IMG/VR virus record: IMGVR_UViG_3300047281_000124
Length of the DNA: 64,000 nt
Direction: 5' to 3' (one strand)
Origin: a virus
Taxonomy: Duplodnaviria; Heunggongvirae; Uroviricota; Caudoviricetes
In this document: positions 2,797-19,805 of the stretch, piece by piece
Layout: every line of letters begins with the position of its first letter
How positions within the stretch are numbered: position 1 is the stretch's first letter
Translations under genes and position numbers: made by a program
The notes under the pieces: model-generated
Database searches by the model: none
Told to the model about the DNA's origin: nothing
What the model saw: the letters and a program-made list of their open reading frames with translations, nothing else

Positions 2797-2963
2797 CTAA
2801 AGCTGAAATAGAGATTACAGAGTTTTACCGAGAAGGTATGACTGCACGAGATATTGCAGACTGTACTGGATACAGAATATATTGGATTAAAAAACTATTA
2901 GCTAATGAGCCTGAGTTCAGAGCTATTGGTTACATCTTCCGCAACCTTCCGGCCATAGTATAA
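2787..2963 (+). CDS. small HTH-like protein (58 aa)
   Basis: The ATG at 2787 overlaps the upstream stop; the 3' end overlaps tRNA-Arg. Confidence 0.25.
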   Translation: MVLTKAEIEITEFYREGMTARDIADCTGYRIYWIKKLLANEPEFRAIGYIFRNLPAIV

Positions 2964-3023
2964 CGGATAATACAGCGGTCTTCTACACCGTGAATGTGGG
3001 TTCGATTCCTACTGGCCGGACCA
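2949..3023 (+). tRNA. tRNA-Arg (anticodon TCT), CCA encoded
   Basis: Perfect 7-bp acceptor stem (CCGGCCA/TGGCCGG), D arm GTAT/ATAC, anticodon loop CTTCTAC, T loop TTCGATT. Confidence 0.8.
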
Positions 3024-3037
3024 TTAGAATTATTCAT

Positions 3038-3066
3038 TTGATTTGAGAACTTTTCTTTGTTATAAT
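3038..3066 (+). promoter_or_regulatory. conserved early promoter: ATTCATTTGATT, 17-nt spacer, TATAAT
   Basis: -35 at 3038-3043 and -10 at 3061-3066. Confidence 0.6.
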
Positions 3067-3089
3067 AATTACTTAGAAAAGGAAATAAT

Positions 3090-3407
3090 ATGTCACAATA
3101 CACACCAGAGCGTTGGGTCGTACTAGAGTTTACGCATCCTGAGCACGGAGTCTTTCGTAAAGTCTTTGCAGGCTGGTACGGCGGATTTGCTGCTGGCGAC
3201 TCGTGGAAACTTAACTCAGGTATCACATTTACTCGAATTGAAGGTAACTTTTACGAGTTTGACGGCTACAGCGGTAGCACATATATCTGCCGTAGAGGTG
3301 CCTACGGAATGAGCGGCTATATGGCCCACGTATTAGCAGGCTGGCGTGAAAAGTCTCCCTATCTAGAGATTAAAGAAATTGATCTTGAAGATATTGTGGC
3401 TTCGTGA
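3090..3407 (+). CDS. hypothetical protein
   Basis: ORF with an RBS AAAGGAAAT upstream. Confidence 0.45.
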   Translation: MSQYTPERWVVLEFTHPEHGVFRKVFAGWYGGFAAGDSWKLNSGITFTRIEGNFYEFDGYSGSTYICRRGAYGMSGYMAHVLAGWREKSPYLEIKEIDLEDIVAS

Positions 3408-3436
3408 TATAATAATTACTTAGAATAAGGAATAAC

Positions 3437-3646
3437 ATGGGATATAGCAGAGAGTTTTTGATTGATGCGTTCCTGTGGAGGTATACTGATATACTGTTAG
3501 CAGGTTCCACCGAAGAACAAGACAGCTATGTCTCTATGGTTACAAAATACTACGATGAAGTAGGCAGGGATACTTTTAGAATCTATGCAAGTTTAGACGC
3601 CGCTGAGTTACAAAAATTTAAACTTGCAACTGGTCGCAAATCATAG
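3437..3646 (+). CDS. hypothetical protein
   Basis: ORF with an RBS AAGGAAT upstream. Confidence 0.4.
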   Translation: MGYSREFLIDAFLWRYTDILLAGSTEEQDSYVSMVTKYYDEVGRDTFRIYASLDAAELQKFKLATGRKS

Positions 3647-3659
3647 TATAATAGATACT
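3618..3659 (+). repeat. 42-bp direct repeat, copy 1 (contains the promoter TTGCAA, 17-nt spacer, TATAAT)
   Basis: Identical apart from 1 mismatch to 3829-3870. Confidence 0.8.
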
Positions 3660-3828
3660 TATTCGATAGATTACCGCGTAGTGCTATAAATCAGGACGGC
3701 AATATGTTGTGAAAAATGTATTTAGTACATTACCAGTATAATCAATTGATTCGGGAGCTTGCTACCCAACTGATGCATCCAAGCCCAGTTAGCCCACTAT
3801 AGAGCCAAACGTAAGGACTATCGAATAT

Positions 3829-3870
3829 TTAAACTTGCAACTGGTCGTAAATCATAGTATAATAGATACT
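3829..3870 (+). repeat. 42-bp direct repeat, copy 2 (duplicated promoter)
   Basis: TTAAACTTGCAACTGGTCG(C/T)AAATCATAGTATAATAGATACT. Confidence 0.8.
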
Positions 3871-4088
3871 CAGAACAAAGAAACCGTGAAGCACGGGTCT
3901 TTAATAAAAAGCTAAGGCTATTGCCGTAGTTAGTGTGTTGAAAGCAAAGTCGGCTCGAAGCGTTAAGACAACCCCAGGATAATCCCTAAGTACATAGACG
4001 GCAAATCTATCGAAAAAGGTAACGTCGTAAGGCTCTTAGGCAATTAGGGTAATTTAGACGAGTAAACATACGTTTAGCTTTTTATTAA

Positions 4089-4174
4089 GGATGTTTATAC
4101 CGTTAAGGAGACGGTTCCGGCTGTAACCCGGACGCTTTGCGGCTCTGATGGATCGTTACCATCAACATCCACCA
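4089..4174 (+). tRNA. tRNA-Tyr (anticodon GTA), type II with long variable arm, CCA encoded
   Basis: Acceptor GGATGTT/AACATCC; anticodon arm TCCGG-CTGTAAC-CCGGA; T stem GATGG/CCATC with an unusual ATCGTTA T loop. Confidence 0.65.
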
Positions 4175-4377
4175 AACCCCAAGATCAGACCAACTAGAAA
4201 CCGACGGCACTGTGCGTCGGAACTTTTAGCGGTGGCATAACAACTGACTGAACTAGGCTGTTGCCTTGACCTAGTTCCCATATATTAGTATTCACACATA
4301 CGTGCCGTAATTAGGCTGATAATCTATATATTCGGTGTAGGTTAATCGCTACTGTGTTTAAGTGAGTATTAATATAT

Positions 4378-4460
4378 GGGCTGCTGGCATATACAAATTG
4401 GTACAGTTTCTCGCCTTAGAAGCGAGGCTTTTCCCGGTTCGAGTCCGGGGCAGCCCACCA
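4378..4460 (+). tRNA. atypical tRNA-like gene (83 nt); anticodon loop CTTAGAA suggests Leu-TAG
   Basis: Perfect acceptor GGGCTGC/GCAGCCC plus A plus CCA; canonical T arm CCCGG-TTCGAGT-CCGGG. The D region is over-long and does not fold canonically. Confidence 0.45.
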
Positions 4461-4523
4461 AAATTTTGAACTTGATAATTTGGTAGTCATGTGTTATAAT
4501 ATACTCATGACAAGGAAAATTAT

Positions 4524-5189
4524 ATGTTTACAGAATTAGTATTAAATAAACTTGAGCTATCCTATAGTGATATAGCTAAGAAAAAACACGGTAGTGCAAG
4601 AGAGTTCTCTTATGGAGAAGTAATTAGTAGGATATTAGCTAATCATGGTTGTTCTGCGTACAAGTTGTTCCCAGAAATTGGAGAGCAGACATTTTTTCGA
4701 ATGATGAAAAAAGCGTTCCCATTAGTATCTCTTGCAGGCGGTGAACAGACTTGGCACTATTACTTTTTATCTTTGATAAACTATAAGTATTGTGGCTCCT
4801 GTAGTACCGTTAAATGCTTCAATGATTATGCTAATAATAAGCTTAATACGCTTGGCATTGCAAGTCATTGTAAAGTTTGTAGAAATAAAGCACAAGAAGG
4901 TAGTTATGATAAGTATTTTGATTCACATCAAAAATCGTATATTAAGAATTATGGTAAGATTCGTGAAAGACAAAATCACTATAAAGGCGAGCGTACCTTA
5001 CGTATACCGCTTTGGTCTCAAACTGAGCTAATAGCTGAGTTTTATGATAGATGTCCAGAAGGTTACCAGGTAGACCATATAATACCACTAAGAGGTGAGT
5101 TAGTTAGCGGACTGCACGTAATAGATAACCTACAGTACCTTACCGTTTTAGAAAACTCAAGCAAAAGCAATAAATATGAAATACTTTAA
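4524..5189 (+). CDS. HNH homing/nicking endonuclease (paralog 1 of 3)
   Basis: C-terminal YQVDHIIPL...GLHVIDNLQYLT...N..K HNH motif; N-terminal Cys-rich region. Paralogous to 13399-14010 and 19965-20570. Confidence 0.75.
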   Translation: MFTELVLNKLELSYSDIAKKKHGSAREFSYGEVISRILANHGCSAYKLFPEIGEQTFFRMMKKAFPLVSLAGGEQTWHYYFLSLINYKYCGSCSTVKCFNDYANNKLNTLGIASHCKVCRNKAQEGSYDKYFDSHQKSYIKNYGKIRERQNHYKGERTLRIPLWSQTELIAEFYDRCPEGYQVDHIIPLRGELVSGLHVIDNLQYLTVLENSSKSNKYEIL

Positions 5190-5406
5190 TACAATTACTC
5201 AAATCACCGTAGGTAGAGCTAACGAGAACCCTGTCTATGGAGACTGCGTTCGCGTAAAGCTAGAAGACGAGTGCGGCGGAATGTTTCTAGTGTTTGAGCA
5301 ATCTGGCGAAGACGACCGCGAACATGAGGTTCGTATCTCCTTCGAAGAGTGGGATAACATCTGCCAAGCTGTTCAGATGCTAAAGAGTCAAGACTTAGTT
5401 AAGTAA
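5176..5406 (+). CDS. hypothetical acidic protein
   Basis: 76-aa ORF. Confidence 0.4.
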   Translation: MKYFNTITQITVGRANENPVYGDCVRVKLEDECGGMFLVFEQSGEDDREHEVRISFEEWDNICQAVQMLKSQDLVK

Positions 5407-5464
5407 TCATTAAACCCTAAATTGGAGAAAATTATGCGAATGTAAAACTACATAGGAGCATAGT

Positions 5465-5740
5465 ATGTCTAGAACATATAAAGATCGTCCCTCTAAAGTC
5501 AGGTTTCCTGAAGTGTATCCATATTGGGTAGACGTAGAGAAGACAAAGAAAAGTCGTAATGTTGATACTGAGTGGCATTGGATGAGTACACCTAACTGGT
5601 GGATTCATATCTGGATGACTCGACCTCAACGTCGCGCAGGCAATGTTTGGGAACATATCGTTACTCAGACTGCCGTAGAAGAAATTGACTTACTAGATGT
5701 CCCTAGTGTTAGTCGTAAACCCCACATATATTATTGGTAA
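5465..5740 (+). CDS. hypothetical protein
   Basis: ORF with an RBS AGGAGC. Confidence 0.4.
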   Translation: MSRTYKDRPSKVRFPEVYPYWVDVEKTKKSRNVDTEWHWMSTPNWWIHIWMTRPQRRAGNVWEHIVTQTAVEEIDLLDVPSVSRKPHIYYW

Positions 5741-5744
5741 TCAA

Positions 5745-5939
5745 ATGAAACAACTATTCCTAGCTCTCGCTGCTTTCGCAGTTATCGTATCAGCCCAAGC
5801 AACTGCTGTTGTTACTCCCGTTGCTAAAGCTTCTGCTGTTGGTACACCTTTGCCAGCTGCATCTGCTCCAGTAACTGCCACAGTTAAAGCTAAGCAAGTT
5901 GCTAAAAAGCCTGAAGTTGCTGCATCTGCCCCTAAGTAG
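5745..5939 (+). CDS. small secreted Ala/Val/Thr-rich protein (signal peptide)
   Basis: MKQLFLALAAFAVIVSAQA signal-like N-terminus followed by a low-complexity A/V/T/P region. Confidence 0.4.
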   Translation: MKQLFLALAAFAVIVSAQATAVVTPVAKASAVGTPLPAASAPVTATVKAKQVAKKPEVAASAPK

Positions 5940-5950
5940 TAAAATTGTGT

Positions 5951-6721
5951 ATGTTTTTTGATACGTACCCTGAGTTTGTAGATAAAGACGTGAGAAAAGA
6001 TAGGGCTGTTTTACAAGTTACGTCAGAGTCTCTATCTAAAAGGTGTGCTTCAATACTCCCCCTTAATATAGTTAGTGGGGCCACTATTTTAGACCTAGGT
6101 TCTGCTCTTGGTGCAATGGGGCACTACGGTTTAACTATGGGTGCTTCTAGGTACACTGGTGTAGAAATACAGCAGCACTATAGAAACAGCTCTTTTGAAC
6201 TTCTTGGTAAGTATCACACAGCCAGTTCTTGGAATATATTAGAGACCGTTACCCAAGTATCGGGTGTCTATGATGTGGTTTTAGCTTGTGGGTTTTTACA
6301 CGGCTTTATAGACATTTTTGGTACTATAGAACGGGTTTGCAAACTTTCCAGTAAATACGTTATTATAGAGACTACAAGACCTACTATAGCATCTTTTGTC
6401 AAAGATAGCTCAGTTGGATATAAAAACGTAGGGCCTTCAATAGTTTTTATTGATAACGTTACAATGGTAAAAAATACTGGATATTATTCAAATTATAGTG
6501 GAGTATCTTCTTTAGCTAATAAAGAAGCCATAGACTTAATAATGTTGTTAAATGGGTTTCATGAAGACCACGATGCCCGTCCTGCTCCTATTATAGATAG
6601 TCATGATGCATACCAGGAAAATGCTGGTATGCATTCTCGCTTTATTACTAGGTATCTAAAAAAATTACCTATGGCCTCCTTAGAAAGTAGTATCAAGCAT
6701 GATAACTTGGGAATTCAATAA
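5951..6721 (+). CDS. CmoB-like class I SAM-dependent enzyme (tRNA U34 carboxymethyltransferase family)
   Basis: Motif I ILDLGSALG; YDVVLACGFLHG and KYVIIETT blocks align with E. coli CmoB FDTVFSMGVLYH and GELVLETL (from memory). Confidence 0.5.
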   Translation: MFFDTYPEFVDKDVRKDRAVLQVTSESLSKRCASILPLNIVSGATILDLGSALGAMGHYGLTMGASRYTGVEIQQHYRNSSFELLGKYHTASSWNILETVTQVSGVYDVVLACGFLHGFIDIFGTIERVCKLSSKYVIIETTRPTIASFVKDSSVGYKNVGPSIVFIDNVTMVKNTGYYSNYSGVSSLANKEAIDLIMLLNGFHEDHDARPAPIIDSHDAYQENAGMHSRFITRYLKKLPMASLESSIKHDNLGIQ

Positions 6722-7319
6722 AGACGTTGCTAGTAGATTTCTTAGTGAGGCAAGTAACCATATTCCGGATTATTTTAAAGTTATTCAGATATGCTTAGAG
6801 TATGCACAATTTTACCCAAAAAGCGCTACTATTTTAGATATAGGTAGCGCTTTAGGTGAGACTGTTTTTACTTTTAAAAATAGCGGATACTTCAATACTT
6901 ACGGTGTAGATTCAAGTATTGATATGATACGTGCTTCCAGGTATCCAGATAGCACTATTCACTCCAGCACTATGCCCAAAATTTTATGTGACTTAGTTTT
7001 ATTTAATTGGACACTACACTTTATTAAGGAAAAGCAGGAGTATTTAAGAGATGTTTTTAACAATCTCCATACAAACGGAACGCTTATTTTAACGGATAAA
7101 ACAGCTCAAACTGCAAATATTAAAAATCTGTACTATTCTTTTAAACAAAAGAACGGTGTTACCGACAATTATATTCTTGAAAAAGAAAAAATGCTTGTAC
7201 ATAGTATGTATATTAAAGATTTTTCTTGGTATACTGAAACTTTACATGAAATAGGCTTTGCTAGTGTGGAAGTCGTAAATGCTAAGTACGGTTTTGTTAC
7301 TTTTGTATGCCAGAAATAA
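6699..7319 (+). CDS. CmoA-like carboxy-SAM synthase family protein
   Basis: W.F..V...F...IP.Y...I....E.A, then ATILDIGSALG (CmoA has VYDLGCSLGAATL), FNWTLHFI (CmoA has LNFTLQFL), then a C-terminal GF..VE block. Confidence 0.55.
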   Translation: MITWEFNKDVASRFLSEASNHIPDYFKVIQICLEYAQFYPKSATILDIGSALGETVFTFKNSGYFNTYGVDSSIDMIRASRYPDSTIHSSTMPKILCDLVLFNWTLHFIKEKQEYLRDVFNNLHTNGTLILTDKTAQTANIKNLYYSFKQKNGVTDNYILEKEKMLVHSMYIKDFSWYTETLHEIGFASVEVVNAKYGFVTFVCQK

Positions 7320-7491
7320 GCAGTAAAAATTTAAACTTGTTTCGGTAACTGTTTACTGTTATAATTATATCTCTGGCGAAATAGACAATCTAGTCTAAGC
7401 AGCATGAACTGGCGAATCTTAACAGAATCAATAAAGCCATAAAAACACCCACCAGATTGGAACGCTCTGGATTAACAAAAGTTACCATCAT

Positions 7492-7569
7492 CTGTGCGTG
7501 AGAAAGTCTGGTTAATCTACTCGCCTTGGAAGTGAGAAATCGTAGGTTCGAATCCTACCGCACAGACCA
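7492..7569 (+). tRNA. tRNA-Pro (anticodon TGG), CCA encoded
   Basis: Perfect acceptor CTGTGCG/CGCACAG; anticodon arm CTCGC-CTTGGAA-GTGAG; T arm GTAGG-TTCGAAT-CCTAC. The D arm is slightly irregular. Confidence 0.7.
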
Positions 7570-7754
7570 CTTAATTTAGTACTATCTAGCAGCCATATTA
7601 GTTGGGGCTTTGCAGACCAATACGAATAAGGGTACCCGGCCGGTATATCCCTAATGAGGTCTATGTCTATTGATAGGGGCGTCGAAAACCCTGAACCTTA
7701 GTCTATGCGGAAACGTAGGTAGAATGATAGTATTAAATTAAATGGAGAAATAAT

Positions 7755-8195
7755 ATGTTAGTAGATAATATGAAGGTGCTTTTAGCATCAAGTTTTAGTT
7801 TGTATCTAAAGGCGTCCAACTTTCATTGGAATGTAGAAGGCCCAAACTTCCCACAGTATCACAGCTTTCTCGGAGATTTTTACAGCGACATTTATGGGAC
7901 TGTAGATACTACTGCCGAGTACATTCGTGCTCTTGATAGCTATACTCCTGGCAGCTTGGCTCGTTTTCAGGAACTTACATTCATTCAAGACTGCACAGAA
8001 CAGTTGTTACCAATGGATCAATTTTCTGAGCTACTAAAAGATAGTAATCTATTCTTAGAGTATTTGAATGGAACCTTCATGCTAGCTTCTGCTGAGAATC
8101 AGCAAGGTATTGCAAACTTCCTAGCCGAACGTATTGACGCAATGCAAAAACATAACTGGATGCTTCGTAGCATTCTTAAAACATCAAAGATGTAA
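7755..8195 (+). CDS. Dps-like ferritin (DNA-binding ferritin-like protein)
   Basis: NFHWNVEGPNF..YHSFLGDFY...VDTTAEY matches the Dps ferroxidase-centre signature (HW-N-x-G-x-NF...H...D..E). Confidence 0.6.
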   Translation: MLVDNMKVLLASSFSLYLKASNFHWNVEGPNFPQYHSFLGDFYSDIYGTVDTTAEYIRALDSYTPGSLARFQELTFIQDCTEQLLPMDQFSELLKDSNLFLEYLNGTFMLASAENQQGIANFLAERIDAMQKHNWMLRSILKTSKM

Positions 8196-8203
8196 ACACT
8201 TTC

Positions 8204-8279
8204 GGGGGTGTAGCTCAGCTGGGAGAGCGGCTGCTTTGCAAGCAGTAGGTAGCGGGTTCGAGTCCTGTCATCTCCACCA
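8204..8279 (+). tRNA. tRNA-Ala (anticodon TGC), CCA encoded
   Basis: Acceptor GGGGGTG with a G3:U70 wobble pair (the Ala identity element); D arm GCTC/GAGC; anticodon loop TTTGCAA. Confidence 0.8.
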
Positions 8280-8427
8280 AATAACGAAGACTGAAATCGG
8301 ATCACCGATGGATAAAGTGGACGACACGTTAGCGTGTAGGCTGTCTTCACCAATAATAAGGGTTCCTATGAAACGTATATTTAATTCGACTATTTCATCC
8401 ACATAAGATACCCTTATTTCCTCAAAT

Positions 8428-8458
8428 TAAAGGGGCTTCGGCCCCTTTACTTTTATAT
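8428..8458 (+). terminator. rho-independent terminator
   Basis: AGGGGC-TTCG-GCCCCT followed by a T-rich tract. Confidence 0.6.
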
Positions 8459-8472
8459 CAAAGAATATTGAC

Positions 8473-8501
8473 TTGATGTTCGCAGTGTTCTTTGATATAA
8501 T
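8473..8501 (+). promoter_or_regulatory. promoter: TTGATG, 17-nt spacer, TATAAT
   Basis: Member of the promoter family. Confidence 0.55.
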
Positions 8502-8524
8502 TATTCTTTAAAGAGAGAAATCAC

Positions 8525-8728
8525 ATGAAAGTATGGGAAGCAATCCAAATGCTTGAAGCAATGGATCAAACTAAAGAAGTTACTATTACCTTTGGTAAGC
8601 CTGCAAAAACTGTAGAGCAAATGTATAACCGTGACTATGTAATTAACAAAGAACAATGGGTTAATCGTGATTGGCCCGTGAATACTATTACTGCTAAAAG
8701 TCAGGAACTACAAGGATATTTGCTTTGA
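8525..8728 (+). CDS. hypothetical protein
   Basis: ORF with an RBS AGAGAGAAAT. Confidence 0.4.
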   Translation: MKVWEAIQMLEAMDQTKEVTITFGKPAKTVEQMYNRDYVINKEQWVNRDWPVNTITAKSQELQGYLL

Positions 8729-8958
8729 AACCTATCGTAGACATTAAAGACTGCTATATTATTACCGACTCTTTAAACAGAGAACGTCTTAAAGGTATTG
8801 TGCTTAACTATCCAGAAGACCACAAGATTAATTACTTTAAAGATGGTGATACAGTAATCACTTCTCCAATCGTTAAGAAAAGCGATTGGACTATAGAAAC
8901 AACGCGCACGAACTATCGTGTAGTAAATTGGATACATGATGAAAACACGAAAACCTAG
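8725..8958 (+). CDS. hypothetical protein (TTG start overlapping the upstream stop)
   Basis: ORF present; no ATG near the start. Confidence 0.3.
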   Translation: MKPIVDIKDCYIITDSLNRERLKGIVLNYPEDHKINYFKDGDTVITSPIVKKSDWTIETTRTNYRVVNWIHDENTKT

Positions 8959-9063
8959 GAATCACGTTGCAATCGCTTTAAGTAAGCGTAGCGGCAGTGG
9001 TTCTCATACAAAAACAAACAAACAAAAGCGTGCAGCACTCAAGAGTGAGGGCTGGGACGGCTA

Positions 9064-9138
9064 AGGGTGTGTAATTCAACGGTTAGAATAGCGGACTTTT
9101 AATCCGTTTATCATGGTTCGATTCCATGTACACCCACC
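9064..9138 (+). tRNA. tRNA-Lys (anticodon TTT), CCA encoded
   Basis: Acceptor GGGTGTG/TACACCC; D arm ATTC/GAAT; anticodon loop CTTTTAA; T arm CATGG-TTCGATT-CCATG. Confidence 0.8.
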
Positions 9139-9592
9139 ATATTTTAGTACTTTGACGGGAGTCCTGCTGCCATCGTGCGGCGGTAGTTCCGGTAGCTTTG
9201 ACGAGCTGCGAAAAACCTAGCGTCAACTAGGTGGATATTAAAGTATTAAAATATGGTTGTAGCAGACAGGGGTTCGAAACCTTGAATCGACTAGGAATAA
9301 ATTAGTAACTACCGGACTGTTCCGACCGGCAACCAGCTAAAAATTAGTCCCGCCAAGCCTACATAGACGTATCCCTAGTTTGTGTGGCTCAAATTGGTCG
9401 AGGTAGGTGCAAGCCCTATCATTAAAAATGTACATACTGAATGGCGTGGTATGGCACGGATTTCTAGCCTGAGGATCGTCGTCCAAGAGTAGCAAGACAA
9501 TATGTACCCATCTTAGGGGGTGGGGTCATATTAAAGCATACTTGATATACTCATAGTATATAGAGACACTAGAAACGTGAGTATGTTTTAAT

Positions 9593-9745
9593 ATGGTATC
9601 AAAACTATGGAAAATATGGGCAAAGGCTCTAGGAGAGAAATCTGACTATGAGCCTAATAAGGTCGCCGTTGTAAGAACCTTAATTGTGGCTTGTTACGTT
9701 GTAACAAATCTAGTAATCATCGCCGGTGTTATAAGACATTGGTAA
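9593..9745 (+). CDS. small membrane protein (50 aa)
   Basis: ATG at 9593; one hydrophobic helix VAVVRTLIVACYVVTNLVIIAGVI; below the ORF-track cutoff. Confidence 0.3.
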   Translation: MVSKLWKIWAKALGEKSDYEPNKVAVVRTLIVACYVVTNLVIIAGVIRHW

Positions 9746-9761
9746 ACACACACAACACACT

Positions 9762-9992
9762 ATGAAATCACCATTTGAAATCCGCGCAGACCTGCTTAAA
9801 CAGGCTCAAGAGCTTCTTGAAGCTCAGTACAAAGCCAATGTACATTTTGCTACTGATGCCTTCTATAAACTTCTTAAAGACGGTACTGTAACTGCTGAAA
9901 CTTACAAAGACTTCGTGCCTAAGTTTCCCACAACTGAAGAAATTTTGACTAAAGCTAAAGAGTTTTACTCTTTCGTTAATACAAGCAAATGA
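9762..9992 (+). CDS. hypothetical protein
   Basis: 76-aa ORF. Confidence 0.4.
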   Translation: MKSPFEIRADLLKQAQELLEAQYKANVHFATDAFYKLLKDGTVTAETYKDFVPKFPTTEEILTKAKEFYSFVNTSK

Positions 9993-10155
9993 ATTATTTA
10001 AACATCCTGAAAGGGCTGTTTAAAGACAAGCCCTCACTAGAGGACTTCATTGCTGCACATGAACCAACCGACATTTATCAAGTAGAACATCTCGAAAGAG
10101 AGTATGCTAGATTTATGCAAAGCAAGAATTTCTGGGGTTCAATTCAATAAAATAC

Positions 10156-10230
10156 TGGGCTATAGTGTAATTGGCAACACAACACACTTTGACTGTGTCG
10201 TTCTAGGTTCGAGTCCTAGTAGCCCTGCCA
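10156..10230 (+). tRNA. tRNA-Gln (anticodon TTG), CCA encoded
   Basis: A U1/U72 position-1 mismatch with G73 (a weak 1:72 pair, as in Gln tRNAs); D arm GTGT/ACAC; anticodon arm ACACA-CTTTGAC-TGTGT. Confidence 0.75.
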
Positions 10231-10313
10231 TTTTTCTTAGTTTTTAAAACTTCGTGTATCAGACAGTTAGTACACAAATCTAACACCGGACCTGTAACCG
10301 GTACTAATAATAT

Positions 10314-10389
10314 TCCTCAGTAGCACAGCGGTAGTTGCACTTGACTGTTAATCAAGTTGTCCGTGGTTCGATCCCACGCTGAGGAGCCA
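10314..10389 (+). tRNA. tRNA-Asn (anticodon GTT), CCA encoded
   Basis: Acceptor TCCTCAG/CTGAGGA; anticodon arm CTTGA-CTGTTAA-TCAAG; T arm CGTGG-TTCGATC-CCACG. Confidence 0.8.
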
Positions 10390-10434
10390 AATTTCAGACT
10401 TGACCCTAAACCTCATTTACGTTATAATTATAGC

Positions 10435-10944
10435 ATGAACACAATACTTAAACAATTTCTTCAAGTTATCGACCTTAAAATCACTGGCGGTGAAGACTAT
10501 CATTGGGGCTGTTACGGTTCTAATGCTCGCTTTCTTGAGTCAGATTATTCAGTTGCTAATGGGTACTCTTGTACAGCTATCTTTGATTCCGAAAGTCAAA
10601 CAGTTTACGAACTGGAAGCACATGACTTTAATAATGAGCGCAGCTATCGCTGGATTAATCCAGACTATGAGTTCTTGATGATTGCAGAAGCTAATAAGCG
10701 AGGAATTAATAAAGATAATGCCTATGATGGCGTTGAATTTGTTGATGTGATCTTGGAAGACTTCTTCGAAAAAGCTTCTGCCATCGTTAATGGTGATGAG
10801 TATGATACTCGTGTAATTGTACCAGTTGACTTTGATGACGCTACGTTTATGTTTATTGCTAAAGCTGCTCACGCAAAAGATATTACTTTCAATAAGTTTG
10901 TTGAAGGTGTAATGCTTGAACAAATCGCTAGAATGAAAGTTTAG
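10435..10944 (+). CDS. hypothetical acidic protein
   Basis: The ATG at 10435 lies just 7 nt after a TATAAT, so the mRNA may be leaderless; the track's earlier start overlaps tRNA-Asn. Confidence 0.45.
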   Translation: MNTILKQFLQVIDLKITGGEDYHWGCYGSNARFLESDYSVANGYSCTAIFDSESQTVYELEAHDFNNERSYRWINPDYEFLMIAEANKRGINKDNAYDGVEFVDVILEDFFEKASAIVNGDEYDTRVIVPVDFDDATFMFIAKAAHAKDITFNKFVEGVMLEQIARMKV

Positions 10945-10945
10945 T

Positions 10946-11146
10946 ATGCCTTGTATGAAATGCGCTAATGGTAAGTGGAAGTACGGTGCAGGCGGTAGCT
11001 GTGTATTTGATACACTAGCTGCTTGTAAAGCAGCGGCTGCTGCAATCCATATTCCTAAAGAAATGACACCTTTACCAGGTGTAGAAGTAGAGCCAGGTTG
11101 TCATCGTGAAGACATGACGTCTGCTCTAGCAGCACAGTATAAATAA
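10946..11146 (+). CDS. small Cys-rich protein
   Basis: 66-aa ORF containing CMKCANGKW...C. Confidence 0.4.
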   Translation: MPCMKCANGKWKYGAGGSCVFDTLAACKAAAAAIHIPKEMTPLPGVEVEPGCHREDMTSALAAQYK

Positions 11147-11234
11147 GGAAGATTGGCCGATCGGTTAAGGCAACGGCTTGCTAAGCCGTCATTTAGAAAT
11201 AGGTGGGTAGGTTCGATTCCTACATCTTCCGCCA
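11147..11234 (+). tRNA. tRNA-Ser (anticodon GCT), type II, CCA encoded
   Basis: Acceptor GGAAGAT/ATCTTCC; anticodon arm ACGGC-TTGCTAA-GCCGT; long variable arm. Confidence 0.8.
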
Positions 11235-11239
11235 AATAA

Positions 11240-11314
11240 ACCCGAATAGTATAACGGTTATTACATCCGCTTGATAAGCGGTCAACCCTAGTTCGATTCT
11301 AGGTTCGGGTACCA
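11240..11314 (+). tRNA. tRNA-Ile (anticodon GAT), CCA encoded
   Basis: Acceptor ACCCGAA/TTCGGGT; anticodon loop TTGATAA; T arm CCTAG-TTCGATT-CTAGG. Confidence 0.75.
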
Positions 11315-11318
11315 ATAT

Positions 11319-11392
11319 TACTCACTAGTGTAATGGCAGCACTATGTTCTCCAAAAGCATCAGTCAAGGTTCGAGTCCTTGGTGAGTAGCCA
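11319..11392 (+). tRNA. tRNA-Trp (anticodon CCA), CCA encoded
   Basis: Acceptor TACTCAC/GTGAGTA; anticodon arm ATGTT-CTCCAAA-AGCAT; T arm CAAGG-TTCGAGT-CCTTG. Confidence 0.75.
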
Positions 11393-11402
11393 AACAAAAT
11401 AT

Positions 11403-11477
11403 CGCGGGTTATGTCAGTGGTAGACGACTAGGCTCATAACCTAGAGGCCGGAGGTTCGAATCCTTCACCCGCAACCA
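11403..11477 (+). tRNA. tRNA-Met (anticodon CAT), probable initiator (C1/A72 mismatch)
   Basis: Acceptor CGCGGGT/ACCCGCA with position 1:72 unpaired; anticodon loop CTCATAA. Confidence 0.75.
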
Positions 11478-11481
11478 ACAA

Positions 11482-11572
11482 GGAAGTGCAACCCAATTGG
11501 CGATGGGATCAGTCTTGAAAACTGCCGAGTGCTAATACCGCCTTGAGAGTTCGACTCTCTCCGCTTCCGCCA
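11482..11572 (+). tRNA. tRNA-Ser (anticodon TGA), type II, CCA encoded
   Basis: Acceptor GGAAGTG/CGCTTCC; anticodon loop CTTGAAA; long variable arm; T arm GAGAG-TTCGACT-CTCTC. Confidence 0.75.
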
Positions 11573-11672
11573 AGTTTTATATCAGGTTAGCCAAGTGTCT
11601 AGGCAGTTGACTGCAAATCTTCTTAGATTGGTTAAAATCCAATACCTGATTCCACCCACCTTAAAGGTAACA

Positions 11673-12299
11673 ATGTCAGAAACCAAGAACAACCTAGAAT
11701 TAGACTTTGGTACACGTGCTAAGGGAATGCTCCCTAGTAAGTCTACAGCTAGTATTCACGAATTTTACCTTTCTGGTACTATTGAAGAACCGGATACATA
11801 TATTGATTGGTTTGACACTATTCGTCATGCTCGCCCATCTGATAGTATTAAGATTTATATCAATAGTTGTGGTGGTGATCTTTATACAGCTATTCAGTTT
11901 ATGCGGGTATTGTACGATACTGAAGCAACTATCACTTGTTCAGTAGAAGGCGCTTGTATGAGTGCAGCTACTATGATCTTTATGTGTGCTGATGAGTACG
12001 AAGTTACACCTCACTCAACCTTTATGTTCCACAACTATAGTGGTGGTACATTCGGTAAGGGCGGTGAGATGATTGACCAACTTCAGCATGAGCGTAAGTG
12101 GTCTGCTAAACTTATGACCGATATTTATAAAGACTTCCTTACTGAAGCTGAGATCACTTCTATCCTAGATAGTCGTGATATTTGGATGGATGGTGAAGAA
12201 GTTGTATTGCGTATGACTATTCGTTCAGAAGCAATGGAAGAAGAAATGCTTGCTGAAATGGAAGCTATGCGTAAAGCTGAAAAGAAAAAGAAAGATTAA
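11673..12299 (+). CDS. ClpP-like serine protease
   Basis: INSCGGDLYTAIQF...MSAATMIFM resembles the ClpP INSPGG...S...M active-site region. The ATG at 11673 has an RBS AAAGG; the track's earlier start runs into the tRNA. Confidence 0.55.
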   Translation: MSETKNNLELDFGTRAKGMLPSKSTASIHEFYLSGTIEEPDTYIDWFDTIRHARPSDSIKIYINSCGGDLYTAIQFMRVLYDTEATITCSVEGACMSAATMIFMCADEYEVTPHSTFMFHNYSGGTFGKGGEMIDQLQHERKWSAKLMTDIYKDFLTEAEITSILDSRDIWMDGEEVVLRMTIRSEAMEEEMLAEMEAMRKAEKKKKD

Positions 12300-12300
12300 T

Positions 12301-12483
12301 ATGAAAGCATTTTTCGTAATTGTATTGCTCGTGCTAATTATAGTAATCGGTCCATTGTTAGCTGTTTGGGCACTTAATACTTTGTTTCCTGTATTAGCTA
12401 TTCCTTATAATATATACACTTGGGCCGCAGTAGGCATATTGGCCAGCTATGGTCGTGCTAAGTATCCTGTAAAGGTAAATTAA
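12301..12483 (+). CDS. small hydrophobic membrane protein
   Basis: ATG at 12301; two predicted transmembrane helices. Confidence 0.45.
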   Translation: MKAFFVIVLLVLIIVIGPLLAVWALNTLFPVLAIPYNIYTWAAVGILASYGRAKYPVKVN

Positions 12484-12549
12484 CTCAGTTGGTAGAGTAG
12501 CTGCTTCATACGCAGTCTGTCGCAGGTTCGAATCCTGCATTTACCACCA
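12474..12549 (+). tRNA. tRNA-Met or tRNA-Ile2 (anticodon CAT), CCA encoded
   Basis: Acceptor GGTAAAT/ATTTACC; D arm ACTC/GAGT; anticodon loop TTCATAC; T arm GCAGG-TTCGAAT-CCTGC. Confidence 0.75.
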
Positions 12550-12551
12550 GT

Positions 12552-12626
12552 CTCTCCTTAGTACAATGGAAAGTACATAGCGCTACGAACGCTAGGATGT
12601 GTGTTCGATTCATGCAGGAGAGGCCA
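12552..12626 (+). tRNA. tRNA-Arg (anticodon ACG), CCA encoded
   Basis: Acceptor CTCTCCT/AGGAGAG; D arm GTAC/GTAC; anticodon arm TAGCG-CTACGAA-CGCTA. Confidence 0.75.
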
Positions 12627-12700
12627 TAAGTAAACACACGGGTGTGGCACATCCATTAAATCACGCTGGTTTGAGTCCGGCAGCCTTAGTGTGTTTTCTT

Positions 12701-12979
12701 ATGGCAAAATCATTTTCAAACATTAAAAAATCGCTTGGACTATTAGATATAATCCAATTTGGCAAATACAAAGGCTGTAGAGTTGATTCTATTATAGAAC
12801 AGGACGACGAGTATCTTCGCTATATGCAAACACACGGTATCAAGTTTGATGCAGATGTAATGAGTGCTTTGACTAATAAGTTCTTAGCTACTTCCAATAT
12901 AGTAAATGCAGAAGATGACGCATCCTACTTTAGTGGTAACACCTACGATATTATTATATTTGATGAAATCCCATTCTAA
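12701..12979 (+). CDS. DUF3820-like protein with an SSB-tail-like C-terminus
   Basis: An FGKYKG...DDEYLRYM motif, and a C-terminal IIIFDEIPF that resembles the E. coli SSB tip DDDIPF. Confidence 0.45.
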   Translation: MAKSFSNIKKSLGLLDIIQFGKYKGCRVDSIIEQDDEYLRYMQTHGIKFDADVMSALTNKFLATSNIVNAEDDASYFSGNTYDIIIFDEIPF

Positions 12980-12980
12980 T

Positions 12981-13056
12981 GGTAAGAATAGTGTACCGGA
13001 GCGCACGCCTGACTGTGAATCAGGTAGACAGGGTTCGACTCCCGTTCATTACCCCA
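12981..13056 (+). tRNA. tRNA-His (anticodon GTG) with G-1 and C73; weak acceptor and T stems
   Basis: Anticodon arm CCTGA-CTGTGAA-TCAGG is perfect; an extra 5' G pairs with C73. The acceptor has 2 mismatches and the T stem only 3 bp. Confidence 0.55.
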
Positions 13057-13068
13057 AGAATTATTCAT

Positions 13069-13097
13069 TTGCGGCCGAGCTGATTCTTTGATATAAT
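13069..13097 (+). promoter_or_regulatory. promoter: ATTCATTTGCGG, 17-nt spacer, TATAAT
   Basis: Member of the promoter family. Confidence 0.55.
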
Positions 13098-13103
13098 TAT
13101 CAC

Positions 13104-13328
13104 ATGAAAAAGAAATTCAATATTCAATCAGTTTCACCAGAAATGGGCACTTCAAGAACTACAACACGGCCACCTAGCCTTGTTACTCCTGGAGGCTCTA
13201 CTGCGATGAAAGAAATTCCAAAGTATACCGGTACAGAAATGATCGGTATTTCAATTATTCACAAGAGCTGCTTGCAGCCAGTATTTAGCAAAGAAGCTGC
13301 AATTGATGTAGCTTCAATGCGTCGTTAA
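13104..13328 (+). CDS. hypothetical protein
   Basis: 74-aa ORF immediately downstream of a promoter. Confidence 0.4.
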   Translation: MKKKFNIQSVSPEMGTSRTTTRPPSLVTPGGSTAMKEIPKYTGTEMIGISIIHKSCLQPVFSKEAAIDVASMRR

Positions 13329-13398
13329 GGAACAAAAAATTGTACTTGTAATTTCGAGTCTGTTGAGGTATAATTAAAACATACCAAAAAGGGTGACT

Positions 13399-14010
13399 AT
13401 GGAATTATTAATAATCAATGCTCTAGGGCTGGATCCTACTATGCCTTTAAAGAAAGCTATTCGAGGATTACCGGGATATAATATTAAGGAACTTATATAT
13501 TCTTTAGTGTCTACTGCTTCTATAACAGAAGCAGCTACTTTATTAGGTTATACAGATAATCCTATAAAACAGTCTATAAAACAAATATTACAACCTTTAT
13601 TCCCTAATAGAGGTACCTTTAGCACTAAAGGTAATAGCAGCCACACCTCTTGGAGGTTAACCTTACTAGCAGTTATTAAACATAAATATTGTAGTAGTTG
13701 CTCTATTGTAAAACCTTTCTCAGGGTTCCACATAAATAAAAATATTTCTGATGGTATAGAAAGCGAGTGTGCTAGTTGCAAGAATTTTCGTAATACATTG
13801 GATAGGGAGTATATTGCTAAGCGTACTCCGGCATGGTCTGAGCTACTAGAAATATCTATATTTTATAATAAATGTCCTGATAATTATCATGTAGATCATA
13901 TAATTCCTTTAAGAGGTACATCTGTATCAGGATTACACGTACTAAGTAATCTACAGTATTTATCTGCTAAGGATAATATGTCTAAAGGTAATAGATATAT
14001 TCAAGAATAA
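13399..14010 (+). CDS. HNH homing/nicking endonuclease (paralog 2 of 3)
   Basis: YHVDHIIPLRGTSVSGLHVLSNLQYLSAKDNMSKGN. Confidence 0.75.
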   Translation: MELLIINALGLDPTMPLKKAIRGLPGYNIKELIYSLVSTASITEAATLLGYTDNPIKQSIKQILQPLFPNRGTFSTKGNSSHTSWRLTLLAVIKHKYCSSCSIVKPFSGFHINKNISDGIESECASCKNFRNTLDREYIAKRTPAWSELLEISIFYNKCPDNYHVDHIIPLRGTSVSGLHVLSNLQYLSAKDNMSKGNRYIQE

Positions 14011-14012
14011 TT

Positions 14013-14086
14013 GCATCTTTAGTTTAATGGTAAAACTCCTTCCTTCCAAGTAGGTGTCGTCAGTTCGATTCTGACAAGATGCTCCA
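14013..14086 (+). tRNA. tRNA-Gly (anticodon TCC), CCA encoded
   Basis: Acceptor GCATCTT/AAGATGC; D arm GTTT/AAAC; anticodon loop CTTCCAA; T arm GTCAG-TTCGATT-CTGAC. Confidence 0.75.
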
Positions 14087-14091
14087 AATTT

Positions 14092-14166
14092 GCCTCGATA
14101 GTTTAACGGTTAGAACAATGCCTTTACACGGCGTAGATGGGAGTTCGATTCTCCACCGAGGTACCA
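14092..14166 (+). tRNA. tRNA-Val (anticodon TAC), CCA encoded
   Basis: Acceptor GCCTCGA/CCGAGGT (one mismatch); anticodon arm ATGCC-TTTACAC-GGCGT. Confidence 0.7.
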
Positions 14167-14319
14167 AGTTTTGTAGTTTAGTCGGTGAGGCTATGGTAAA
14201 GGCGTTGCGGGACTTAAATGACGTTAAACATCGAAGCGCAACTTAATGATAATGTGTGCAGCCTACTACAAATTATTTACTTGAAATCTTACTTAAATCA
14301 TTGTATAATTAACGCTTAA

Positions 14320-14478
14320 ATGATAAAAATCATATTAATCTTATTGACCCTAAGCTGTATTATCTATGCAGGTTACGTGATCATTAAACAGTTTAAACCC
14401 TATAAATTAATCCTTACAGGCTTAGCCTTTGTAAGTATCGCAGCTATCCTTTTAACAACAATTACCTTACTATTCTAA
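14320..14478 (+). CDS. small membrane protein (52 aa)
   Basis: ATG at 14320 after the promoter TTGAAA, 17-nt spacer, TATAAT; two hydrophobic segments. Confidence 0.35.
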   Translation: MIKIILILLTLSCIIYAGYVIIKQFKPYKLILTGLAFVSIAAILLTTITLLF

Positions 14479-15278
14479 TGAACAAATTCTTCAAAATCTC
14501 TGCTATTCTCGCTGCCGTAGTTCTCGCAACCGGCTGTACTCGTATCGAAACCGGCGAAGTCGGTGTGCGATTGAACGCATCTAAGCAGATCGAAGGTACT
14601 GAACTGCAACCAGGCGGTTTCTACCAAACCTTGGTAGGTTCTGTATTGACATTTCCAGTTAAGGACTTGTCAATCAATATCGAGAATAAGTCTCCTATGG
14701 CTAGTGATAACTCGGCCTTGGCAGACTTCGACATGACTGTGGTTTATGCAATTAATCCAACTTCTGTATCTGAGCTGTACTCTAGCAAGTCGCGCGCTTT
14801 TCATTCCGAGTCTAAGGGCGATATTTTCCTCATGTACAACTATATGACAACTCTAGCCAATAACGCGGCTTATAAAGTTGTGCGTCAGTACAAGTCCTTG
14901 GAAGTTGCTGATAATCGTGCTAAGATTGAATCAGAGATTCGTGACGCAGTTCACGAGCAGTTGAAAGCTGAGAAGTTGGACACAGCTCTTAGCCTGACAG
15001 TTGTGCAAGTTCGTAGTATCTTGCCTAATGCTGAAATCTTGAAGTCTGCTACTGAGTACGTTAAAGCTCAAAATGAGTTGAAGATCAAAGAGACTGAAGT
15101 TGCTATCGCTAAGAAAGAGTCTGAGCGTATGGCTGCATTGAGTGCGAACTCCGCCACTTCTATTGCATATATGAGTGCTCAGGCTAATATGTTGATCGCT
15201 AAAGGTATTAGCGAAGGTAAAGTACATACTATTGTTGTTCCTATGGACTTCAAAGGTATGGTTAACGTAGGTAAGTAA
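14478..15278 (+). CDS. SPFH/band-7-like lipoprotein
   Basis: Lipobox LATGC; SPFH-like core with a coiled-coil region (QYKSLEVADNRAKIESEIRDAV). Confidence 0.5.
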   Translation: MNKFFKISAILAAVVLATGCTRIETGEVGVRLNASKQIEGTELQPGGFYQTLVGSVLTFPVKDLSINIENKSPMASDNSALADFDMTVVYAINPTSVSELYSSKSRAFHSESKGDIFLMYNYMTTLANNAAYKVVRQYKSLEVADNRAKIESEIRDAVHEQLKAEKLDTALSLTVVQVRSILPNAEILKSATEYVKAQNELKIKETEVAIAKKESERMAALSANSATSIAYMSAQANMLIAKGISEGKVHTIVVPMDFKGMVNVGK

Positions 15279-15322
15279 TTTGTTTAGTACGCTGTGTAAA
15301 TTACAGCGTACTAAATATTCAT

Positions 15323-15351
15323 TTGATTTGGCTCTTAAAGTTTGTTATAAT
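15323..15351 (+). promoter_or_regulatory. promoter: ATTCATTTGATT, 17-nt spacer, TATAAT
   Basis: Member of the promoter family. Confidence 0.6.
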
Positions 15352-15376
15352 TATTTATAGATTAAGAGAGAACCAA

Positions 15377-15670
15377 ATGCGTAAAATTGTTATTTGTATG
15401 GATGCTGGTATAGCGGGCAGTGATGCTTATGAGTTTTGGGAATTTCCTGATAGTGTAACTACTAAAGAATTAGACACTTTTGCTTGGGAAGCCGGAGTAG
15501 AGCACGCTGATATGTATGGTATTTACCCTGAGTATCAATACACAGAAGAAGACATAGAAGACGACCCAGAAAGTTATTCTGGTAATATTGAAGGTTACTG
15601 GGAATACTATGATTCTGAAAAACACGACGGCCACTCAATGACAGGCATTCCAGAGTGGAAACAAGCATAA
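15377..15670 (+). CDS. highly acidic, aromatic-rich small protein (candidate DNA mimic)
   Basis: 97 aa with a strong D/E/Y/W bias. Confidence 0.45.
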   Translation: MRKIVICMDAGIAGSDAYEFWEFPDSVTTKELDTFAWEAGVEHADMYGIYPEYQYTEEDIEDDPESYSGNIEGYWEYYDSEKHDGHSMTGIPEWKQA

Positions 15671-19622: not shown

Positions 19623-19698
19623 TGCCCTCATAGCTCATCTGGTAGAGCAACCGCCTTGTAAGCGGTAGGTGACCTGTTCAAGTCGGGTTGAGGGCACC
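19623..19698 (+). tRNA. tRNA-Thr (anticodon TGT), CCA encoded
   Basis: GCCCTCATAGCTCATCTGGTAGAGC...; anticodon arm ACCGC-CTTGTAA-GCGGT. Confidence 0.85.
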
Positions 19699-19805
19699 AT
19701 ATCTTAGCATACTATTCGCCACTTAATCAATATATGTGGAGTAGCCTGCAGCAATTACTTTCCACGGGTAATCGGGAGCACCCGACATGGGTAGTATGCT
19801 AAGAT
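19699..19805 (+). ncRNA. large structured element closed by a perfect 15-bp inverted repeat
   Basis: TATCTTAGCATACTA at 19699-19713 pairs with TAGTATGCTAAGATA at 19791-19805; internal hairpins in the 77-nt loop. Confidence 0.4.

Follow-up and report, generated by a model that had tools for sequence, protein, structure and literature searches.

Two overlapping methyltransferase-fold genes in the tRNA region of a phage

We analyzed a 64,000-nucleotide stretch of DNA (hereafter the window) from a virus of the class Caudoviricetes, IMG/VR record IMGVR_UViG_3300047281_000124, which carries two overlapping genes within its tRNA region. One of them, ORF2, is a divergent relative of CmoA, the synthase of carboxy-S-adenosylmethionine (Cx-SAM); the other, ORF1, is probably a dedicated carboxymethyltransferase of a new family and the partner of ORF2. 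The two open reading frames (ORFs) are as follows:

5951..6721 (+), ORF1, 256 amino acids (aa) from its ATG
6699..7319 (+), ORF2, 206 aa

They overlap by 23 nt, and the position of the ORF2 ATG within the 3' end of ORF1 suggests that the two genes are translationally coupled. A TTG at 5945 offers an alternative start for ORF1, but we favor the ATG at 5951 because ORF1 homologues start with MFFD. Motif I is near-identical in both proteins, ATILDLGSALGAMG in ORF1 (ATILDLGSALG) and ATILDIGSALGETV in ORF2 (ATILDIGSALG), and its GSALG core is unusual, the equivalents being GCSLG in E. coli CmoA and GCGSG in E. coli CmoB. An earlier note on this DNA had described two adjacent ORFs with a common motif I, and we found both the coordinates and the motif letters to be correct.

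ORF2 is a divergent CmoA

By fold and family, ORF2 is a divergent CmoA. A phmmer search matched it to PDB entry 4GEK with an E-value of 5e-11, and 4GEK and 4IWN (both E. coli CmoA) as well as H. influenzae YecO were matched over their full length (E ~1e-10). The profile of the ORF2 family, built from 18 homologues, found YecO at 5e-30 and CmoA at 2e-28, while the next family, MM_2633, reached only 1.6e-10, and hhalign gave a probability of 99.8% for ORF2 against CmoA. The AlphaFold model of ORF2 (mean predicted local distance difference test score, pLDDT, 93.4) had 4GEK as its top Foldseek match in the PDB (TMq 0.86). In addition, ORF2 matched PHROG 4752 ("tRNA methyltransferase") at 4e-33, and CmoA was the top NCBIfam match for every member of the ORF2 family that we tested. 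The earlier note had aligned ORF2 with E. coli CmoA, and these searches confirm that alignment from end to end.

Most of the cofactor-contacting residues that Byrne et al. listed for E. coli CmoA (PMC3663124) are kept in ORF2, with Y39, D62, G64, D89, N132, F137, E164, and K198 of CmoA corresponding to Y25, D47, G49, D71, N103, F108, D133, and K162. Across the 18 family members, little or no variation is seen at Y25, D47, G49, D71 (D or E), N103, F108, and D133, and the CmoA-specific motifs FD..VA..F....IP.Y (at the N terminus), NxTLxF, (S/T)(E/D)K, and FK..NG are also retained. The exception is Arg199, which in E. coli CmoA forms a salt bridge to the carboxylate of Cx-SAM (PMC3663124) and is replaced by Glu (E163) in ORF2. 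Family members have E, Q, or A at this position, never a basic residue, next to an invariant K162.

We considered whether the change of Arg199 to Glu disqualifies ORF2 as a CmoA, and dropped this objection because a phage enzyme that has been assayed carries the same change. SpCmoA, from Synechococcus phage S-B43, has a kcat of 2.3 per s and outpaces the E. coli enzyme tenfold in Cx-SAM synthesis (PMC12783734). Its sequence is 100% identical to that of the S-B05 protein, which has K-E-K instead of K-R-S around Arg199, and Arg199 is therefore not needed for activity. The curated family threshold can be read in the same light: ORF2 scored 54.5 bits against the NCBIfam CmoA model (TIGR00740) and its relatives P0023 and P0039 scored 83.6 and 100.9, all below the equivalog cut-off of 193.3, yet active SpCmoA, at 115.6 bits, falls below it too, so that the cut-off marks the bacterial orthologue group and not activity. 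ORF2 is ~23 to 27% identical to known phage CmoA proteins, and a tblastn search of deposited phages with ORF2 did not find SpCmoA at E<=1e-5. As predicted from its sequence, ORF2 probably synthesizes Cx-SAM.

ORF1 belongs to an unnamed methyltransferase family

ORF1 is a class I S-adenosylmethionine (SAM)-type transferase of a distinct, unnamed family, and a putative Cx-SAM-dependent carboxymethyltransferase. Its motif I reads LDLGSALGAMG, and E72 and D108 represent the usual ribose and adenine contacts. Residues D13, R15, and R18 are invariant in 61/61 sequences and R230 in 60 of the 61, while R31 is also invariant and H117 nearly so. The sole Pfam match of ORF1 was a sub-threshold one to the generic family Methyltransf_12; we found no PHROG match, and tblastn against deposited phages came back empty. 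When the PDB was searched with an ORF1 profile, the best match was the N-terminal part of protein arginine methyltransferases (PRMTs), at 5e-6. The isoelectric point is uninformative, being 5.8 for the ORF1 family and 6.1 for E. coli CmoB.

The earlier note had read ORF1 as a CmoB-like catalytic core. However, the blocks on which it relied, YDVVLACGFLHG and KYVIIETT, are generic class I motif IV and strand 5; ORF1 has no match to the CmoB models, and hhalign of the ORF1 family against CmoB (71%) covers the Rossmann core only. Motif I is preceded by ~45 residues in ORF1 (up to D48) versus ~125 in CmoB (up to D128). We also considered whether ORF1 may have arisen by duplication of ORF2: hhalign of the two gave 93% over 101 core columns, a match no more specific than that to CmoB. 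Of the enzyme pair proposed in that note, the CmoA half thus stands, and the CmoB half is retained only as a remote relationship or functional analogy. ORF1 nonetheless probably uses Cx-SAM.

The two domains are paired or fused across phages and bacteria

Our viral sample consisted of 57 dereplicated IMG/VR loci carrying the module, by which we mean the ORF1-like and CmoA-like domains. These were fused in 30 loci and split in 19, and 8 loci had only one of the domains within their flanks, so that both were present in 49/57. In all of the first ten loci (10/10), which span at least three unrelated phage backgrounds, homologues of ORF1 and then ORF2 were adjacent and overlapping. An exhaustive search with the ORF1-family profile returned 756 representative clusters at E<=1e-3, the best of which are mostly fusions of 460 to 500 aa (~480 aa) in which the ORF1-like domain precedes the CmoA-like one, and an additional search yielded at least 231 clusters of fusions, all of them metagenomic. 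As judged from these sequences, the pair in the window is the split form of the ~480-aa fusion.

In locus L007, the C-terminal half of ORF1 continues in frame into the CmoA-like domain. A frameshift considered at this locus was ruled out, as the interruption is a scaffold gap of Ns. Relatives in bacterial metagenome-assembled genomes (MAGs) include fusions in Bdellovibrionales, Chromatiales, and Myxococcota and split pairs in Patescibacteria (candidate phyla radiation, CPR), although the latter may be mis-binned phage contigs. Kim et al. measured 0.5 uM Cx-SAM in cells, versus ~200 uM SAM (PMC4482062), and the simplest explanation for an obligate fusion of synthase and transferase is that the product is handed over from one to the other. 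The module was absent from all 80 PhoH control loci (78 to 92% identity to the L001-type PhoH), whereas in loci L001 and L011 it lies 1.2 kb downstream of PhoH; it therefore behaves as a variable accessory insertion in the L001-type clade.

Other architectures with an ORF1-like domain were also observed (P0064, P0152, P0170, P0098, P0118, and P0058), including a fusion to a PP-loop ATPase, an extra N-terminal domain of ~300 residues, and a third methyltransferase domain. An ORF1-like/PP-loop fusion protein had TilS as its weak best PDB match (E 0.02), together with weak similarity to Asn synthase. A PP-loop domain, an ORF1-like domain, and a cupin occur together in two eukaryote-like proteins of low complexity (1270 and 1569 aa).

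Fused relatives provide a remote link to CmoB

Although ORF1 itself does not reach the CmoB Pfam core, its fused relatives do. Matches to PF08003, which covers E. coli CmoB over its full length, exceeded the gathering score in 25/40 fused relatives (24 to 37 bits vs 23.8; best E 2e-11), at positions ~100 to 260 of 315, and no other specific family matched as often. In hhalign, the fused family matched CmoB at 96% (E 5e-9), and its consensus GViY fell on GVLY200 of CmoB.

Lys91, Tyr200, and Arg315 of CmoB contact the Cx-SAM carboxylate (PMC4482062). At the position of Tyr200, ORF1 has H117; His is found there in 20/21 members of the split family and Tyr in 25/40 fusions. R230 opens the last strand of ORF1 as Arg315 does that of CmoB (KRAVLIARK vs SRFITRYLKK), and invariant R230, placed in this way by position, may correspond to Arg315. 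ORF1 seems to have no aligned equivalent of Lys91, for which the invariant R15 and R18 may be candidates. R31 falls on the PRMT arginine that binds the SAM alpha-carboxylate and, in our own alignment, also on CmoB Lys110 at a constant offset of 79.

The module is associated with tRNA arrays

In the 57-locus sample, tRNA genes were found in the flanks of 24 loci (288 tRNAs in 873 kb), within 3 kb of the module in 15/57, and within 100 nt in 7/57. They lie on both sides of the module in seven loci (the window, L039, L040, L043, L047, L054, and L081), and several modules sit tightly between tRNA genes, 9 to 20 nt from them. Neither of two control sets contained any tRNA, be it the PhoH loci of the L001 clade (0/80 loci, 0 in 872 kb) or the cyanophage CmoA loci of the DNA-modification system (0/80 loci, 0 in 647 kb). 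If chance rates of 5 to 12% are assumed, finding a tRNA within 3 kb in 15/57 loci has a probability of 1e-7 to 2e-3. This association of the module with tRNA arrays favors a link to tRNA. We had concluded the opposite from the first six loci, which lack nearby tRNAs, and that conclusion was overturned by the larger sample. As a side observation, ARAGORN labeled genes at L016 3990-4066 and L024 231-306 "tRNA-Pyl"; they may be amber-suppressor tRNAs, their CUA anticodon being assumed from the label alone.

Within the window, ARAGORN called 24 tRNAs and a permuted transfer-messenger RNA (tmRNA) over 2949-20644, a region in which tRNA genes are sparse. The candidate substrates, and one further element, are as follows:

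7492..7569 (+), tRNA-Pro(UGG), ARAGORN and Rfam; 173 nt 3' of the ORF2 stop and closest of the candidate substrates, should the wobble uridine be the target
8204..8279 (+), tRNA-Ala(UGC), candidate substrate, ARAGORN and Rfam
11482..11569 (+), tRNA-Ser(UGA), candidate substrate, Rfam tRNA 35.9 bits, missed by ARAGORN; anticodon read from the sequence
14092..14166 (+), tRNA-Val(UAC), candidate substrate, ARAGORN and Rfam
19624..19699 (+), tRNA-Thr(UGU), candidate substrate, ARAGORN and Rfam
4378..4460 (+), tRNA-like element; acceptor stem of 7 bp, CCA end, UAG anticodon loop, D arm degenerate

Six tRNAs with uridine at position 34 had been taken, in the earlier note, to match the E. coli substrates of this modification. 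Pro, Ala, Val, and Thr are upheld by ARAGORN and Ser by Rfam, but the element at 4378 that resembles Leu(UAG) cannot be called a tRNA gene with confidence: its Rfam tRNA score of 21.6 bits lies under the gathering score of 29, and ARAGORN did not call it. Moreover, the anticodon match that the note used as an argument for the pathway is a weak one, because phage sets with a single tRNA per four-codon box normally carry UNN anticodons.

A proposed carboxymethylation cascade and its alternatives

We consider it likely that the two proteins form a cascade of Cx-SAM synthase (ORF2) and transferase (ORF1). ORF2 would convert host SAM and prephenate into S-carboxymethyl-S-adenosylhomocysteine, that is, Cx-SAM. 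ORF1 would bind Cx-SAM in its standard Rossmann pocket, with the additional basic and polar residues R15, R18, H117, and R230 holding the added carboxylate, and would move the carboxymethyl group to a nucleophile. In this phage the two genes are probably translationally coupled, and in most relatives the ~480-aa fusion would hand the scarce cofactor directly to the transferase.

As the acceptor, the wobble uridine of tRNA is our leading candidate, although we hold this with somewhat less than even confidence. The substrate would be 5-hydroxyuridine at position 34 of the phage UNN tRNAs (Pro, Ala, Val, Thr, and Ser) and of host tRNAs, and the product would be 5-carboxymethoxyuridine (cmo5U), a modification with which a single tRNA reads a whole four-codon box. 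Host TrhO or TrhP could supply the hydroxyl for this phage, and a neighboring 2-oxoglutarate (2OG)-Fe(II) oxygenase could do so in many related phages. More tentatively still, we suggest that large phages carry a self-contained wobble-uridine carboxymethylation enzyme in their tRNA arrays, often near a 2OG oxygenase that supplies the hydroxyl, so that their tRNAs would be four-way decoders independent of the host machinery.

A number of observations weigh against this proposal. ORF1 matches neither of the CmoB models, PF08003 (Pfam) and TIGR00452 (NCBIfam), at E<=1, the ORF1 family hidden Markov model scores only 1.2 bits on E. coli CmoB, and equally good fold matches to ORF1 come from dozens of small-molecule N- and O-methyltransferases. 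ORF1 also lacks the ~100-residue N-terminal domain that is specific to CmoB (PMC10491745). The proposed carboxylate triad is placed by position, with no alignment reaching K91 or R315. With regard to tRNA, no tRNA gene lies within 8 kb in 33/57 loci, and of the split subfamily to which the window belongs, only L016 and the window itself have tRNAs nearby. Both control sets are single clades, and the loci are not phylogenetically independent, so the enrichment is one without phylogenetic correction. In addition, tRNA arrays are hot spots for unrelated accessory genes, and that of the window also holds Dps-like, HNH-like, and ClpP-like ORFs. Searches of the window by tblastn found neither TrhO nor TrhP.

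The recurrent neighbors of the module point in the same direction, and they agree with an alternative in which the same Cx-SAM cascade acts on a small molecule, lipid, or peptide, as an auxiliary metabolic or natural-product-like function comparable to TglE/TglF or MccS/MccB-CTD; we regard this as possible but rather unlikely. In the phage loci these neighbors include 2OG-Fe(II) oxygenases (16 of the 57, sometimes overlapping the module start), DUF6356 (13), a 375-aa uncharacterized protein (13), an RNase H-like protein (10), an alpha/beta hydrolase (9), a TctC-like binding protein (8), radical SAM/SPASM proteins (7), and a trio of AMP-binding ligase, short-chain dehydrogenase (SDR), and beta-keto acid cleavage enzyme (BKACE) (5). 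Class IV aminotransferases, MaoC, fatty-acid desaturases, and Asp/Arg hydroxylases recur as well. In bacteria the module is accompanied by Cupin_2 (8/123 ORFs), Asn synthase, radical SAM, YcaO, and nitroreductase genes, a set that seems to resemble peptide or small-molecule pathways such as TglE/TglF, and the multidomain relatives bring together PP-loop, ORF1-like, and cupin domains. The fold neighbors of ORF1 are likewise mostly methyltransferases of small molecules or peptides (ToxA, CypM, CcbJ, ChlM, and MtfA), along with sarcosine/dimethylglycine and glycine N-methyltransferases, and precedents for such acceptors have been reviewed (PMC10491745). However, tblastn with all of the recurrent accessory genes found none in the window, and they are also absent from the L003 group, which implies that the minimal pair must act on something every host supplies. 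An acceptor of this kind would leave the strong association with tRNA arrays unexplained, and it fits poorly with the split pairs in Patescibacteria MAGs (if these are not mis-binned), as that group is not known for much secondary or lipid metabolism. A common logic covers all of these settings, whether the acceptor is a nucleobase, a peptide, or a small molecule: an oxygenase would make the hydroxyl, the module would carboxymethylate it, and a ligase would sometimes amidate the new carboxylate.

Phage DNA offers another possible acceptor, with ORF2 supplying Cx-SAM and ORF1 replacing CmoX, the DNA-directed transferase of phage S-B43, on a different atom or base, in the service of restriction evasion. 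The sole characterized role of a phage CmoA is in making DNA 5-carboxymethylcytosine (PMC12783734), CmoA homologues in 83 phage records often stand beside DNA methyltransferase or ParB-like genes, the L003-group pair sits among helicase, exonuclease, and DnaB genes, and some relatives are fused to or neighbor Asn-synthase-like PP-loop ligases reminiscent of CmoY. We nonetheless find this improbable. ORF1 has no C5-methyltransferase fold, no PC/SPPC motif, no (D/N/S)PP(Y/F/W) amino-methyltransferase motif, and no match to a DNA methylase Pfam family; no C5-methyltransferase appears among its top 50 to 60 fold matches, and no DNA methyltransferase among the best of them; and the canonical CmoA loci of the DNA system, unlike the module, have no tRNAs in their 647 kb. 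Yang et al., furthermore, found no CmoA-linked candidates for N6-adenine or N4-cytosine carboxymethyltransferases (PMC12783734). We give equally little credence to the idea that no Cx-SAM chemistry takes place, and that both proteins are conventional methyltransferases using SAM or that ORF2 serves as a regulatory or SAM-binding subunit. The loss of Arg199 and the low CmoA score of ORF2 (54.5 bits vs 193.3) would fit this idea, as would the fact that the structural relatives CysG/BelI and MM_2633 are not known as Cx-SAM synthases and that CmoB itself can transfer methyl from SAM (PMC4482062). Yet the highly active SpCmoA has the same K-E-K and fails the same cut-off, CmoA is by far the closest family to ORF2 in the profile search (1e-28 vs 1e-10 for the next), its specific motifs are kept, and cofactor hand-over is the best explanation for why two methyltransferase folds are obligately fused.

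Relation to known Cx-SAM systems

Like E. coli CmoA and CmoB, the pair consists of two adjacent, here overlapping, methyltransferase-fold genes, one of them a clear CmoA homologue by sequence and structure. ORF1 has a Rossmann core as CmoB does, its fused relatives match the CmoB Pfam family (25/40) and have a GVxY motif at the apparent position of that with Tyr200, and the frequent placement of the module in tRNA gene arrays is a further likeness to the tRNA-directed E. coli enzymes. In contrast to these, the transferase gene comes first and most relatives are single fused polypeptides, while ORF1, without the N-terminal ~100 residues of CmoB, is missed by CmoB models and ORF2 has Glu for CmoA Arg199.

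The pair also resembles CmoA/CmoX/CmoY of phage S-B43 (Yang et al. 2025, PMC12783734), in that a phage CmoA homologue is combined with a dedicated Cx-SAM-using transferase. Both share the K-E-K signature at Arg199, and the association of CmoX with CmoY has a parallel in some ORF1 relatives, which associate with ligases resembling Asn synthase. CmoX is defined by a C5-cytosine methyltransferase fold, an SPPC catalytic motif, and Arg350 (PMC12783734); unlike it, ORF1 is not a homologue of C5-cytosine methyltransferases, lacks the SPPC motif, and belongs to a different fold subclass. The module is moreover located in tRNA arrays or accessory regions, and not in DNA-metabolism clusters. S-B43 has no CmoB homologue, as Yang et al. 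remark (PMC12783734).

A Cx-SAM synthase is likewise coupled to a transferase in TglE/TglF (3-thiaglutamate) and MccS/MccB-CTD (microcin C-like peptidyl-cytidylate), the acceptors of which are not tRNA. MccB-CTD has a methyltransferase fold unrelated to CmoB and is yet strictly Cx-SAM-specific (PMC10491745). Bacterial relatives of the module resemble these systems in standing beside radical SAM, YcaO, and Asn-synthase genes, whereas the window has no peptide-maturation genes nearby; TglF and MccB were compared by description only.

Cx-SAM is a rare cofactor with four known uses, by CmoB (tRNA), TglF (peptide thiol), and MccB-CTD (peptidyl-cytidylate) (PMC10491745) and by phage CmoX, which converts DNA cytosine at C5 to 5-carboxymethylcytosine (5cxmC) (PMC12783734). 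With TglF and MccB compared as just stated, the module points to a fifth transferase family. This putative family would be defined by obligate fusion to or pairing with the synthase, and its uncharacterized members number in the hundreds, in uncultured phages and several bacterial phyla. Phage CmoA genes are common (83 records) and are often annotated "tRNA methyltransferase." As far as phage CmoA is concerned, the earlier note's claim of novelty is outdated, since phage CmoA is known to supply Cx-SAM for DNA 5-carboxymethylcytosine (PMC12783734), but our literature search found no paper on a phage-encoded cmo5U pathway or on the ORF1/CmoA-like fused family. If the acceptor is tRNA, these phages would supply tRNAs together with the enzyme determining the decoding range of those tRNAs, which bears on why phages carry tRNA arrays. 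If it is indeed the wobble uridine, the module would be the first case of a 5-oxyuridine (xo5U) pathway encoded by a virus and of a Cx-SAM transferase family that is defined by being fused to its synthase. Should the acceptor be something else, the module would represent a compact, self-supplying carboxymethylation enzyme of use in biotechnology.

Other features of the window and of related loci

By megablast against 50,697 deposited phages, no relative of the window was found at the nucleotide level. Its large ORFs include a DnaB-like helicase, a family A DNA polymerase, an SbcC-like protein, a ribonucleotide reductase, and tail fibers, a set that fits a large tailed phage. Immediately upstream of ORF1 lies one small ORF:

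5697..5939 (+), 80 aa, Ala/Val-rich with a hydrophobic N terminus, ending 9 nt before the ORF1 ATG

Given that only 9 nt separate the two, this ORF is probably cotranscribed with ORF1, and it is also found upstream of an identical pair on an independent short contig (L002). A scan of the region for promoters and terminators gave nothing exceeding shuffled expectation.

Three further ORFs stand among the tRNA genes. At 7755-8195 (+), between tRNA-Pro and tRNA-Ala, a Dps/ferritin-like protein of 146 aa matches PDB 8FF9, a "DNA-binding stress protein" (phmmer E 1.9e-18), and is an unusual cargo for a phage. A 221-aa ORF at 4524-5189 (+) has a C terminus that is HNH-endonuclease-like as judged by eye, and a 234-aa ORF at 11595-12299 (+) is a homologue of a ClpP-annotated gene of L001. 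These interspersed HNH-like and ClpP-like ORFs show that the tRNA region of the window gathers unrelated cargo.

Three ARAGORN calls in the window score under the Rfam tRNA gathering score, namely Tyr GUA (4089-4174), Asp GUC (16217-16291), and an 89-nt Arg ACG (16298-16386), the last of which duplicates Arg ACG at 12552. The permuted tmRNA, in two pieces, is at 17647-17990 (+), with scores of 138.6 bits for Rfam beta_tmRNA and 138.5 bits for tmRNA_permuted and an ARAGORN tag of ANDTQFALAA. ARAGORN also found permuted tmRNAs with ANDxxFALAA tags in L001 (14674-15063) and L007 (13295-13739), and this could point to a betaproteobacterial host.

In five dereplicated large-phage loci, the AMP-binding/SDR/BKACE trio lies directly beside the fused gene (L022 9450-14091 and L024 4235-7306, and also L026, L029, and L030), joined in some loci by radical SAM, MaoC dehydratase, or 2OG oxygenase genes; from its predicted enzymes, the trio is a phage-borne small-molecule pathway. 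TrhP is a prephenate-dependent tRNA U34 hydroxylase, and on two Patescibacteria MAG contigs (L108/L109, ~12822-13226, minus strand) a peptidase U32/TrhP-like fragment lies ~3.5 kb from the module and is 29% identical to TrhP of E. coli across 135 aa (E 3e-11). Together with the CPR module, this TrhP-like gene could form a complete xo5U pathway.

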